Positions 41,649 to 44,383 of a stretch of DNA of 64,000 nt are shown piece after piece. Source of the stretch: Candidatus Binatia bacterium. Its GTDB lineage: Bacteria; Desulfobacterota; Binatia; UBA9968. A program made the translations under genes and the position numbers. Under the pieces are notes generated by a model that saw nothing but the letters and a program-made list of their open reading frames with translations, ran no database searches and was not told the DNA's origin. Location of the stretch: positions 7,637 through 71,636 of the forward strand of contig DASYRN010000045.1 in the NCBI GenBank assembly GCA_036004365.1. Direction: 5' to 3'. Numbering within the stretch: position 1 is the first letter of the stretch; each line of letters begins with the position of its first letter.

Positions 41649-42311
41649 TCAGTGGCCGGGGCTCTCCAAGACGGCGAGCGCGGCCTGGCAGCAGAGGATG
41701 TCCTGCTCGGCTCGGCTACCGCCGGCTACGCCGATGGCGCCGACGATCGCCGCGCCGTCAACGATCGCAATGCCTCCACCCGCCGGCATGATGCGACCGC
41801 GGTGCGAGATGACGAGGCTGCGAAACCAGGGGCGGCGCGCTTGGGGCGCCAACTCGGCGGTGGCCAGGTGAAAGGCGGCGGCCGTGTAGGCCTTATTGAA
41901 GGCGAGCTCTGCAGTCCTGGGCTCGGCTTGGTCCATCCGTCCGACGGCGATAGGAGTGCCAGCTTCATCTACGACCACGGCCGTCACCGCGATCCCCGCT
42001 CTTTCCGCGTAGGCGTGCGCTCGATGCACCATCTCCCATGCCTTGTCCACCGGAACCGGCCCAACTGCTGCTTTGTTCTTACGGAAGAAGCTGGCATTGA
42101 CCTCGATGGAGGCCTCATGCTCGGCGGGGAGCTTGGAATCGAGGAAGATCGCGTCCACCGGGCAGACGATCTCACACTGCTCGCACTCGATGCACACTTC
42201 GGGATCAACGTAGTGTTGTGGAGCCCCCGGGAGGGTATGAATGCAGGCGACCGGGCAGACGTCGACGCACGCCCCATCATTTGTACACAGCGAGGTGATA
42301 ATGTACGTCAC
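41649..42311 (-). CDS. ferredoxin (7Fe-type Cys pattern) fused to GlcG/HbpS-like (DUF336) domain
   Basis: C9-x5-C15-x3-C19-P and C40-x2-C43-x2-C46-x3-C50-P. The C-terminal half (ITAVVVDEAGTPIAVGRMD...FNKAYTAAAF...GGIAIVDGAAIVGAIGVAGG) is paralogous to 44593-44991. Confidence 0.8.
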   Translation of the reverse strand: MTYIITSLCTNDGACVDVCPVACIHTLPGAPQHYVDPEVCIECEQCEIVCPVDAIFLDSKLPAEHEASIEVNASFFRKNKAAVGPVPVDKAWEMVHRAHAYAERAGIAVTAVVVDEAGTPIAVGRMDQAEPRTAELAFNKAYTAAAFHLATAELAPQARRPWFRSLVISHRGRIMPAGGGIAIVDGAAIVGAIGVAGGSRAEQDILCCQAALAVLESPGH

Positions 42312-42351
42312 GGAAATCCCTTCTACTAGGTAGCTTCAGAACTCCTCTGAA

Positions 42352-42441
42352 CGTCATGCCAGCCGAGCCCGCGACAGCGGGCGAGAGCCGGAATCCAGGC
42401 AAATATAAGAAGTGCTGGATTTCCGCTTCCGCGGAAATGAC
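42352..42441. repeat. REP/MITE-like palindromic element (CGTCAT...CCGGAATCCAG / CTGGATTTCCG...ATGACG)
   Basis: Terminal CGTCAT/ATGACG, inner CCGGAATCCAG vs CTGGATTTCCG, and an internal hairpin GCCCGC-GACA-GCGGGC. One frame translates to LDFRFRGNDE, a string I recall from dispersed repeats of many bacteria. Confidence 0.55.
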
Positions 42442-42485
42442 GAACCCCGAGGGTCGATTCTTTGGCTGATTTCACACATAGGTGC

Positions 42486-43082
42486 CTATCCATCCGCCCT
42501 CAGCGGCAAATCGGTGCGAATGACGTTCGTCACATGGACGCGGGTCCCATATTTGGGAGTCACTAGCCTCCCGTTAGGGTTGAGAGTACCCAGCCCCGCC
42601 GCCGCGGCGAGCCGCTCGGCATTGGGATCCGGCGCTGCCGTGGCGCGAAAGCCAAGCTCTCTGATCCACGCGCTGAGAACGAAAGTGACGAACAGCCCGT
42701 TCTGCACCGGCACCTGGCCGCCGATGCCCGGGGCCTCTCGCGGGTCATAATCGGCTCGAACCGCACAGATGACGGCGAAGGGATACTGCTCGTCTTTCGA
42801 ATCCAATCTGGCGATACCCACCAGATCGGTGCCCAGGTAGCGGGCCAGCTCCTTGACATGGTTGGACGTGATCTCGGGCGTGTGGATGTCCGCTTTGGTC
42901 GGGAAGACGTTACCCTCGGGCGCACTGCGGATCAGCTCCGTCACCGAATTGGCCAGATCTTCCGGAGGCGTGTTGATGAAAAAATCCCAGTATGGGTCGC
43001 CTGCCCTGAGCCTGGTCGAAGGGTCGTGCTGGGAGCGTGTCTTCGGCCACGGGATTTTTAGCGGGCCCAGTCTGAGGGTCAC
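42486..43082 (-). CDS. RdhA/QueG-superfamily core-only paralogue (no Fe-S domain)
   Basis: The GTG at 43082 shares its G with the TAG stop of the upstream gene. KELARYLGTDLVGIARL...GLGTLNPNGRLVTPKYGTRVHVTNVIRTDLPL parallels [16 protein letters not shown]...[32 protein letters not shown] of the 433-aa protein, and it ends just where that protein's Cys motifs begin. Confidence 0.6.
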   Translation of the reverse strand: MTLRLGPLKIPWPKTRSQHDPSTRLRAGDPYWDFFINTPPEDLANSVTELIRSAPEGNVFPTKADIHTPEITSNHVKELARYLGTDLVGIARLDSKDEQYPFAVICAVRADYDPREAPGIGGQVPVQNGLFVTFVLSAWIRELGFRATAAPDPNAERLAAAAGLGTLNPNGRLVTPKYGTRVHVTNVIRTDLPLRADG

Positions 43083-44383
43083 TAAACGTCCCGCTTGACG
43101 AATCGGTTGGTATTCTCTTTCAGCGGAGCATAGTAGCCGATATCTCCCGCCACCTTTCCCGAGTTCGCCTCGTGCGCCGCGGTGCAACCGGCAACGGTAC
43201 ACGCGTGCTCTCCGGGCTTGATGCCGGAGTCATACCCAAGCCAGCGCACCCGCTTCTGACTCACCACGCCCCAGAAGCGATCATCGATCGCCTTCAGCGC
43301 GTGCACGAGCGCCGGTCGCGCGGGGATAGGGCAGGTGCGCAGAGCCCAGACCGTAAGGCTGCGCCACCAAACGTTGGGTTTGGTGAACGGGCAAACGGTG
43401 GCGCAGGTCAGGCAGCTCATCCAGTGGTCGTGGGTGTACGGCCGCAGCTTATAGCAGGTCAGCCAGTTGATCTTGTACTTCTCGACGCCGTTGAAGACCA
43501 CCTTATCGCCGAAGGGGATGCTGTTGGTGGGACAGTTGACAGCGCATTTGCGGCAAATCTTGCAGAAGTCCTCGACGCCTATGTCGACGGGTTGGTCCGG
43601 CACCAGCGGGAGGTCGGTCATGATGGGATCGGGCATGTGGATGCGGGCACCGAACTTCTCGTTGATGATGAGTCCGTTTCGGCCCAGTTCGCCCACGCCG
43701 GCGGCCAGCCCGGCGGCCTGAGGGTTCGCCACGCCCCGTAGAGCGGTGTAACCCAGCTCCTTGACGTAGCCCTCCAGGGCCTTGAGGATCATGACACCTT
43801 TCATTTGAGAGACGTGGTAGGCCGCATCGCCGACGTGATGGCGGTGCGCCTGAAGCTTATCGTGGTCCCATGCGGTCGTCGTGACGATGATGTAGGGGAA
43901 CTTCCGCACCAGCTCCTCGGGAGTGCTTTGTTGGTACGCGTCCTCTGCCGTGCCGTCTTGCACGTAGCGGTTGCCAGCGTACATGAAGGATGGATGCGCC
44001 CTGGCGATGGCGACGACGTCAGCGCCCATATAACGGGCGACGGCCTTGATGTGGCGCGTCATCGCCGCGGGATCCGTCACTGGCACCTGCTTCGAGTTGA
44101 CCTTGCCCTTGCTGGCTTGGTTAATCACCGTGGTCAGGAAATGTCTGCGATCGGCGAAATGGTTCGGGGCCGACACCCGGGTAAGTGGATCTTTGGAGAT
44201 CGTGTTGCGGTACCAGTTGAAAAGGGCCTTCCCCAGCTCACCGCGCTGGTTTTTGGGATGCGGCGACTGGTTCATATCGACATTAGCGACAGGCCCCACG
44301 ACACGGGCTGACCGGCCGAGGTTGGGTACGGGCGGGATATCCAAGCCTCTTTGATTAACCTTGTCTAGCGTTGCGTTCCCCAT
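43082..44383 (-). CDS. reductive dehalogenase / epoxyqueuosine reductase superfamily protein, cytoplasmic type (no Tat signal)
   Basis: 433 aa. Fe-S motifs [12 protein letters not shown] and C-x14-CLTCATVCP in the C-terminal third, and an N-terminal core with the GADVVAIA motif. No RRxFxK and no RdhB-like gene nearby. Confidence 0.65.
   Translation of the reverse strand: [433 protein letters not shown]

Follow-up and report, generated by a model that had tools for sequence, protein, structure and literature searches.

Separately encoded RdhA-type core lacking the Fe-S domain, translationally coupled to an RdhA-like gene in Candidatus Binatia: a candidate non-catalytic subunit in a conserved gene cassette

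Some reductive dehalogenases (RdhAs) contain two copies of the RdhA core. In the catabolic enzymes NpRdhA (4RAS/6ZXU), BhbA and JtRdhA, for instance, a duplicated core that lacks the iron-sulfur (Fe-S) domain, called the vestigial domain, is fused N-terminally to a complete catalytic core. The vestigial domain of NpRdhA cannot bind cobalamin, and it packs on the active core as two PceA monomers pack on each other (PMC10463259). The respiratory enzyme PceA (4UQU, 8Q4H) is itself a homodimer, and a survey has defined “simplified cytosolic” RdhA-like proteins without the vestigial domain (PMC12219181). Here, we describe a gene cassette found in a 64,000-nucleotide stretch of DNA from a Candidatus Binatia bacterium (contig DASYRN010000045.1, positions 7,637 to 71,636; hereafter, the window), where an RdhA-type core is encoded by a gene of its own. 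A 433-residue (aa) RdhA-like protein is followed by a 198-aa “core-only” paralogue and by a 220-aa protein in which a ferredoxin is fused to an HbpS-like (DUF336) domain (Fd-HbpS), and a free DUF336 protein of 132 aa precedes them. All four genes are co-oriented on the minus strand of the window (Table 1).

The cassette resembles the catabolic enzymes in that a core without Fe-S domain lies beside a complete catalytic one. However, this core is not fused but encoded separately, downstream of the catalytic gene, in all of the ~60 loci compared (in a single locus, discussed below, the upstream gene codes for another oxidoreductase). The cassette also lacks the PDOR reductase domain of the catabolic RdhAs, electrons presumably arriving through the separate Fd-DUF336 protein. 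With the PceA homodimer, the cassette shares the core fold (Foldseek E ~6e-7) and, as we propose here, the contact between two cores. By contrast with PceA, it has neither a twin-arginine translocation (TAT) signal nor RdhB, and one of the partners is devoid of the Fe-S domain and of the active-site loop. The 433-aa protein fits the “simplified cytosolic” group by description (~400 aa, cytosolic, no fused vestigial domain), but the survey that defined this group mentions no separately encoded core-only gene and no Fd-DUF336 partner (PMC12219181). Neither a separately encoded vestigial core nor an Fd-DUF336 partner of RdhA-like enzymes is described in the full-text literature searched.

On balance, the 198-aa protein is probably a non-catalytic subunit that is made in roughly 1:1 proportion with the catalytic subunit and gives an RdhA-type enzyme its second core in trans. 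The first evidence comes from the junction of the two genes. The 433-aa gene ends in GAC GTT TAG, with the TAG at 43084-43082, and the GTG at 43082-43080 is in frame with the open reading frame (ORF) that ends at 42486, G43082 being common to both codons, as the original prediction, made from the sequence alone, had read it. The ORF of the 198-aa gene, when defined mechanically, reaches further upstream, to a GTG at 43202 (238 aa). Nevertheless, we take the GTG at 43082 as the real start, because all homologues open with M/V-(A/T)LRLGPLK; the product then reads VTLRLGPLKIPW...TDLPLRADG up to its stop codon. The TAGTG overlap is present in ~36 of the 44 orthologous loci, the remainder showing gaps of 0-5 nt or a TTGA overlap, while distant loci have TAATG or 1-nt overlaps. 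As it recurs although the synonymous divergence (dS) of these loci is ~1.3, the overlap is beyond what would be expected by chance. Thus, the stop and the start overlap or abut in the window and in its orthologues, as in translationally coupled pairs.

Table 1. Features of the cassette, in window coordinates and in the order of transcription
Feature	Positions	Strand	Remarks
Free HbpS-like/DUF336 protein, 132 aa	44593..44991	-	PF03928 101.7 bits; first cassette gene in the Binatia-type clade
Sigma-70-like promoter match, 5′ of the RdhA-like gene	44415..44443	-	TTGTCA-17-CATACT, 9/12 positions; consensus match only
RdhA-like B12/2x[4Fe-4S] protein, 433 aa, cytosolic	43082..44383	-	No TAT signal, no vestigial domain
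TAGTG stop/start overlap, translational coupling junction	43080..43084	-	Seen in the sequence itself
Core-only RdhA paralogue, 198 aa, GTG start	42486..43082	-	Paralogy by BLASTP and profile-profile comparison
Spacer, 174 nt, with palindromic element (42352-42442) and AAGGGA Shine-Dalgarno-like site	42312..42485	-
Ferredoxin domain (FdxA-type, probably [3Fe-4S][4Fe-4S]) of the 220-aa fusion	42060..42311	-	NF045480, Pfam Fer4
Linker, HbpS-like/DUF336 domain (~41673-42047) and stop codon of the 220-aa fusion	41649..42059	-	PF03928 98.7 bits

The two proteins are paralogues. BLASTP aligns residues 5-197 of the 198-aa protein with residues 50-263 of the 433-aa protein (27% identity over 225 columns, E=1e-20), and the comparison of both families with hhalign places residues 40-198 on 76-264 (probability 99.4%, E=5e-21). 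The latter alignment ends at the last residue of the 198-aa protein, opposite residue 264; the first Fe-S cysteine of the 433-aa protein, C274, lies ten residues further. This agrees with the earlier description of the product as aligning with the N-terminal two thirds of its neighbour and ending before the Fe-S domain. The AlphaFold2 (AF2) model of the 198-aa protein is of moderate confidence (predicted local distance difference test, pLDDT, of 73.9), with residues 1-28 disordered, and its Foldseek matches are PceA, NpRdhA and QueG (E=6e-7 to 1e-4). No cysteine motif is found in the protein, which consequently combines the RdhA core fold with the lack of an Fe-S domain. In the databases, members of the family are named “hypothetical protein”.

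Several elements of the catalytic core have been lost in the 198-aa protein. In place of the loop of the 433-aa protein on which the catalytic Tyr sits in solved RdhAs, it has a shorter GIGGQ, 5 residues fewer in all. The invariant G-E-L-G-R / AGxGExxR motif is without its Glu and Arg (E232 and R235 in the 433-aa protein, R235 being the counterpart of PceA R291 and NpRdhA R473), while IRELG(F/Y), AGLG and TDLPL are retained. The 26-residue insert of the 433-aa paralogue is missing as well. At exactly this position (window 42780-42800, about residues 95-100), the homologues of the 198-aa protein carry a variable, low-complexity insert of 0 to ~45 residues in which Pro, Ser, Gly and Glu abound, and the site probably forms an exposed loop.

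Overlapping frames together with a truncated architecture give the superficial look of a disrupted duplicate, and the 198-aa ORF might accordingly be read as a pseudogene remnant, or as a piece of a longer product made by frameshifting or read-through onto the 433-aa protein. We consider this very improbable and already contradicted by the data. The junction sequence varies among loci (CGTTTAGTG, CGCGTAGTG or CCCTAGTG), there is no conserved slippery sequence across the loci compared, and the frame of the 433-aa protein in the window runs into a TAG followed by an in-frame TGA (tandem TAG TGA). Additionally, the family is under purifying selection, the ratio of nonsynonymous to synonymous divergence (dN/dS) over ~44 orthologous loci with dS ~1.3 being 0.116 for the core-only gene, as compared with 0.098 for the RdhA-like gene, 0.125 for the Fd fusion and 0.036 for the free DUF336 gene. 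Both ends of the protein are conserved across phyla, the homologues ending a few residues past T-D-L-P-L. A search of a protein collection returned 1535 homologues, of which the best 120 are all 181-221 aa long (68-99% identity), and an exhaustive search of representatives clustered at 50% identity again gave stand-alone proteins, of ~180-215 aa and down to 35% identity.

A fused, intact gene in close relatives had been named in advance as the observation that would reveal a recent truncation. The relatives encode stand-alone proteins of ~190-220 aa, and a concatenated 433+198-aa query (631 aa), for which any fused protein would be expected at the top of the list, gave among its best hits only proteins of 386-506 aa that span its first two thirds; no fused RdhA+core protein appeared. 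Recent truncation and disruption by a repeat are thus ruled out by the lengths and conserved ends of the homologues, by dN/dS and by the absence from related loci of the palindromic element that lies downstream of the gene. This element (42352-42442) is predicted to fold into a three-way junction closed by CGUCAU/AUGACG (-44.1 kcal/mol, z=-2.1). As it occurs only once in the window and is lacking from the orthologous spacers, the repetition implied by its first description as “REP-like” (repetitive extragenic palindromic) is not shown, but the accompanying suspicion that simple disruption was unlikely was well founded: the family is conserved, and the element did not split a gene. In three loci from long-read metagenome-assembled genomes (MAGs; L047, L039 and L045), the core-only gene is frameshifted or has no recognisable start; these defects are probably assembly indel errors, not decay.

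The gene order is conserved over large distances. The order HbpS-like, RdhA-like, core-only, Fd-HbpS is kept in 45 loci, drawn from contigs of one genome per species and belonging to at least seven phylum-level groups (Candidatus Binatia, “Deltaproteobacteria” MAGs, Rokubacteria, Chloroflexota, Acidobacteriota, Udaeobacter, Syntrophobacteraceae and a gammaproteobacterial MAG), while the flanks are unrelated. When distant members are included, the triad of RdhA-like, core-only and Fd-HbpS genes is found in ~60 loci in all. In these distant members, four of whose loci came from a metagenome scan with a smaller profile, the core-only proteins are 33-46% and the RdhA-like proteins 43-59% identical to those of the window; the triad is kept, the core-only gene usually overlaps both of its neighbours, and no free HbpS-like gene is present. 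The free gene lies upstream in 42 of 46 informative loci. Where the DNA could be read, the Fd-HbpS gene follows the core-only gene in all 57 informative loci, and an RdhA-like gene precedes the core-only gene in ~56 of 57. Gene tables of three further loci show Fd-HbpS downstream in all three and a complete RdhA-like gene upstream in two.

The distance matrices of the three proteins of the triad correlate strongly (r=0.94-0.97), the partial correlations being 0.46 between core-only and RdhA-like proteins and 0.27 between core-only and Fd-HbpS proteins (these are not independent tests). Such co-variation points to co-evolution of the three proteins, although it is only suggestive.

From these observations, a cytosolic three-component system may be proposed, composed of the RdhA-like reductase, the core-only protein and the Fd-DUF336 protein, with the free DUF336 protein as a fourth component in this clade. 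Termination and reinitiation at the shared TAGTG would keep the core-only protein, probably an expressed subunit, in a fixed ratio to the catalytic one. It would then pack on the catalytic subunit by way of the homodimerisation surface of respiratory RdhAs, a contact on which the conserved coupling and the co-variation bear only indirectly, and it may also dock the ferredoxin domain that would deliver the electrons. Having lost the active-site loop, E232 and R235, the Fe-S domain and the corrinoid-holding C-terminal parts, the core-only protein most likely binds no cobalamin and carries out no catalysis. In DhPceA, six polar residues have been described near the corrin (PMC10624902); taking the numbering at face value, five of the six, H395, K399, N454, H461 and S479, lie past the end of the core-only protein, which corresponds to chain position ~361. 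The original prediction left two options, an Fe-S module supplied in trans or a non-catalytic partner or chaperone. The non-catalytic partner is the better supported of the two, because the active-site loop is replaced, the Glu and Arg are lost, and the vestigial domain of NpRdhA provides a precedent. What did hold in that interpretation is that the gene is a genuine partner not disrupted by the element; the idea that one RdhA gene had literally been split finds no support.

Natural one-chain versions of the arrangement are a 603-aa protein in which a core without Fe-S domain is followed by a full RdhA (P0190) and a 685-aa protein with two complete RdhA units in tandem (P0201). Giant proteins with many RdhA-core-like stretches were also encountered (P0205, 3483 aa, with 22 stretches; P0266, 1831 aa, with 8).

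A direct origin of the core-only family from NpRdhA-type vestigial domains was considered and rejected, as its similarity to catalytic cores is equal or higher. NpRdhA is the best solved relative of the family (E=1e-18), and the family profile scores 35.2 bits on the vestigial domain (59-219) and 33.3 bits on the catalytic core (344-501). In BLAST searches, moreover, the 198-aa protein is closest to its own 433-aa neighbour and to other catalytic cores, not to the vestigial domain of P0190.

Several observations weigh against the favoured reading of a non-catalytic second core. The core-only protein is no nearer to the known vestigial domains than to catalytic cores, so it would represent an independent, analogous duplication. 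It keeps both AGLG and T-D-L-P-L, which the vestigial domain of NpRdhA has lost, and may consequently still bind a ligand. Its linkage to Fd-HbpS (57/57) is at least as constant as that to the RdhA-like gene (~56/57), and the gene that precedes it in one locus is unexplained by a pure mimic of the RdhA dimer. In that locus (L051, 1-2585, on a 2.6-kb contig), the sole one of ~58 without an RdhA-like gene upstream, a core-only member with 36% identity (P0172) follows the alpha subunit of a Rieske ring-hydroxylating dioxygenase (HcaE-like, NF042946, 292 bits, with the Rieske domain present). The Rieske and core-only genes overlap by TAATG, and the core-only and Fd-HbpS genes by ATGA. The genes for the other P0172-like proteins compared (P0151, P0169, P0173, P0175 and P0157) all adjoin RdhA-like genes or probable fragments of them. 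Finally, the chemistry of the 433-aa protein itself appears uncertain, given the residues found at the positions of the catalytic Tyr and Arg/Lys of PceA and NpRdhA.

In phmmer alignments, PceA Tyr246 and NpRdhA Tyr426 fall on Gln193 of the 433-aa protein, and PceA Arg305 and NpRdhA Lys488 on His249, both residues being conserved in the family. The catalytic pair is thus not found at its expected positions, but Y189-H190 lies four residues upstream of Gln193 and the alignment may shift. The score against the TIGR02486 RDH model is 147.5 bits, below the curated cut-off of 160.35. Accordingly, we call the protein only “RdhA-like”, although its homologues are named “reductive dehalogenase” in the source databases. 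Its relationship to the solved enzymes is clear (residues 342-595 of NpRdhA, 4RAS, E=9e-31; residues 135-407 of PceA, 4UQU, E=6e-29), and eight cysteines in two motifs (C274/277/280/284 and C310/324/327/331) lie C-terminal to the RdhA-homologous core. The Pfam scan returned Fer4 families only, and the AF2 model (mean pLDDT 48) was too low in confidence for a fold search. The subfamily also has a C-terminal extension (window 43085-43345, residues ~347-433) with an invariant C395-x4-C400-x3-H404 and a nearly invariant 16-residue tail; both persist as protein sequence, the codons changing synonymously, as far as the distant clade (L061/L062). The extension may serve as a metal site or as a docking tail.

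The third gene of the triad bears on the other option of the original prediction. The ferredoxin domain of the 220-aa fusion (41649-42311) has the motifs C9-x5-C15-x3-C19-P and C40-x2-C43-x2-C46-x3-C50-P. The typical first motif of FdxA is C-x7-C-x3-CP, so that of the fusion, C-x5-C-x3-CP, is degenerate, while the second is canonical. The best family match is NF045480 (FdxA_Actino), with 72.7 bits over residues 1-84; Pfam Fer4 scores 49.5 bits. The motif pattern is thus like that of FdxA-type 7Fe ferredoxins, but the FdxA models score below their cut-offs (125 for NF045480). In RdhA-type Fe-S domains, the first motif is complete and a long insert lies ahead of the second; in the fusion, by contrast, the first motif is degenerate, there is no such insert, and the C-terminal helix region is FdxA-like. 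The difference from the RdhA pattern had already been noticed at the first reading. Judging from these features, the ferredoxin appears to be of FdxA type and not derived from an RdhA Fe-S domain, which makes a literal fission of one RdhA gene unlikely.

It is still conceivable that the ferredoxin domain docks on the core-only protein at the place where a full RdhA has its Fe-S domain, forming another RdhA-like core:Fe-S unit, perhaps with a tetrapyrrole on DUF336, whose role would be that of a second active site or of an electron-input module. We regard this as possible, but rather unlikely. In its favour, the linkage of Fd-HbpS to the core-only gene admits no exception in the 57 informative loci, both genes overlap by 4-19 nt in distant clades, L051 has the pair without an RdhA, and AGLG and TDLPL are retained. 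The junction is also nearly collinear with RdhA: in TDLPLRADG|MTYIITSLC, 12 residues separate the L from the first Cys, as compared with 13 in the 433-aa protein, and tblastn alignments of the latter cross the stop codon into the Fd gene in three loci (L036, L037 and L042). However, the ferredoxin does not appear to come from an RdhA Fe-S domain, the core-only protein lacks the active-site loop and the conserved Glu and Arg, and the corrin contacts of the C-terminal region would still be absent. Moreover, the spacers of the Binatia-type clade (21-227 nt in close relatives) contain their own Shine-Dalgarno site, and no core+Fd fusion was found among 150 representatives, the sole candidate (P0136) being a frameshift artefact. 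Hence, the constant linkage and the near-collinear junction speak for an Fe-S module in trans, while the type of the ferredoxin makes an RdhA literally split in two unlikely. This arrangement and the favoured non-catalytic subunit could be combined, as the core-only protein could pair with the catalytic subunit and also hold the ferredoxin.

The remaining partners belong to the DUF336/HbpS-like proteins, which include HbpS, PduO's C-terminal domain (PduOC), OrfY and GlcG, and to which both DUF336 domains of the cassette are linked by strong PF03928 matches. The domain of the fusion (residues 89-213) scores 98.7 bits and the free protein 101.7 bits, with a cut-off of 25, and the two are 57% identical. 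The fusion is 100% identical to an NCBI entry named “heme-binding protein [Candidatus Binatia bacterium]”, and no FdxA-DUF336 fusion is described in the literature searched. The free protein is the most conserved of the four (85-95% identity, dN/dS 0.036), yet the distant clades, which have the other three genes, are without it. DUF336 proteins have been associated with B12 enzymes: HbpS binds heme and aquocobalamin (Kd 34 µM), and PduOC binds heme and supports a B12 pathway, its binding of cobalamin being only very weak (PMC4923194).

These properties suggest yet another explanation, in which the core-only protein, like the structurally related CblC/MMACHC, would transiently hold base-off cobalamin and load it into the RdhA-like enzyme, while the DUF336 proteins and the ferredoxin would reduce or escort the cofactor. 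The core-only protein has the RdhA/QueG core fold in Foldseek comparisons and keeps some of the cofactor-core motifs, DUF336 proteins recur beside B12 enzymes, and the cassette has two DUF336 copies. Nevertheless, such a role seems improbable. Chaperones are usually sub-stoichiometric, whereas the tight translational coupling suggests ~1:1 production; furthermore, most corrin-contacting regions are absent from the core-only protein, and the weak cobalamin binding of PduOC gives this explanation little encouragement.

The Rieske locus permits a further, speculative reading, to which we would give rather little credence. The core-only and Fd-DUF336 proteins might together be a portable, hitherto unrecognised redox or cofactor module, in which a 7Fe ferredoxin and a tetrapyrrole-binding domain dock on a degenerate RdhA core. 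Equally doubtfully, such a module would serve unrelated oxidoreductases: RdhA-like proteins in nearly all loci and a Rieske dioxygenase in L051. If this were true, the core-only protein would be defined by its partnership with the ferredoxin fusion and not by mimicry of the RdhA dimer.

As for the rest of the region, the spacer between the core-only and Fd-HbpS genes, originally put at 175 bp, measures 174 nt (42312-42485) and has an AAGGGA Shine-Dalgarno-like site ahead of the GTG with which the fusion begins. The number of sigma-70-like promoter matches is not above that of shuffled sequence, no Rfam family (cobalamin riboswitch or other RNA) was matched in 41000-46000, and no intrinsic terminator was found on the minus strand in the cassette. 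The flanks (40445-41518, 45176-46579, 46578-51171 and 54585-55511) code for a luciferase-like monooxygenase, an MmgE/PrpD protein and many orphan solute-binding proteins (SBP_bac, phosphonate-bd, TctC and NMT1 families), and no genes for B12 synthesis or transport are found near the cassette.

If the favoured reading of the 198-aa protein as a second core in trans is correct, what is new is that the pseudo-dimer principle of NpRdhA is here realised by separate, translationally coupled subunits in a conserved three- or four-gene system. Metagenomes of soils and sediments abound in cytosolic “simplified” RdhA-like genes, which are routinely counted as dehalogenation potential. Those whose products carry Gln and His at the positions of the catalytic Tyr and Arg/Lys might turn out not to be dehalogenases, and the cassette is a warning in this respect. 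It also names specific partners for RdhA-like enzymes, both of which should probably be included in heterologous expression, and ties DUF336 proteins to another family of B12 enzymes. Finally, a natural split version of the NpRdhA pseudo-dimer would provide a test of why RdhA cores need a second core.

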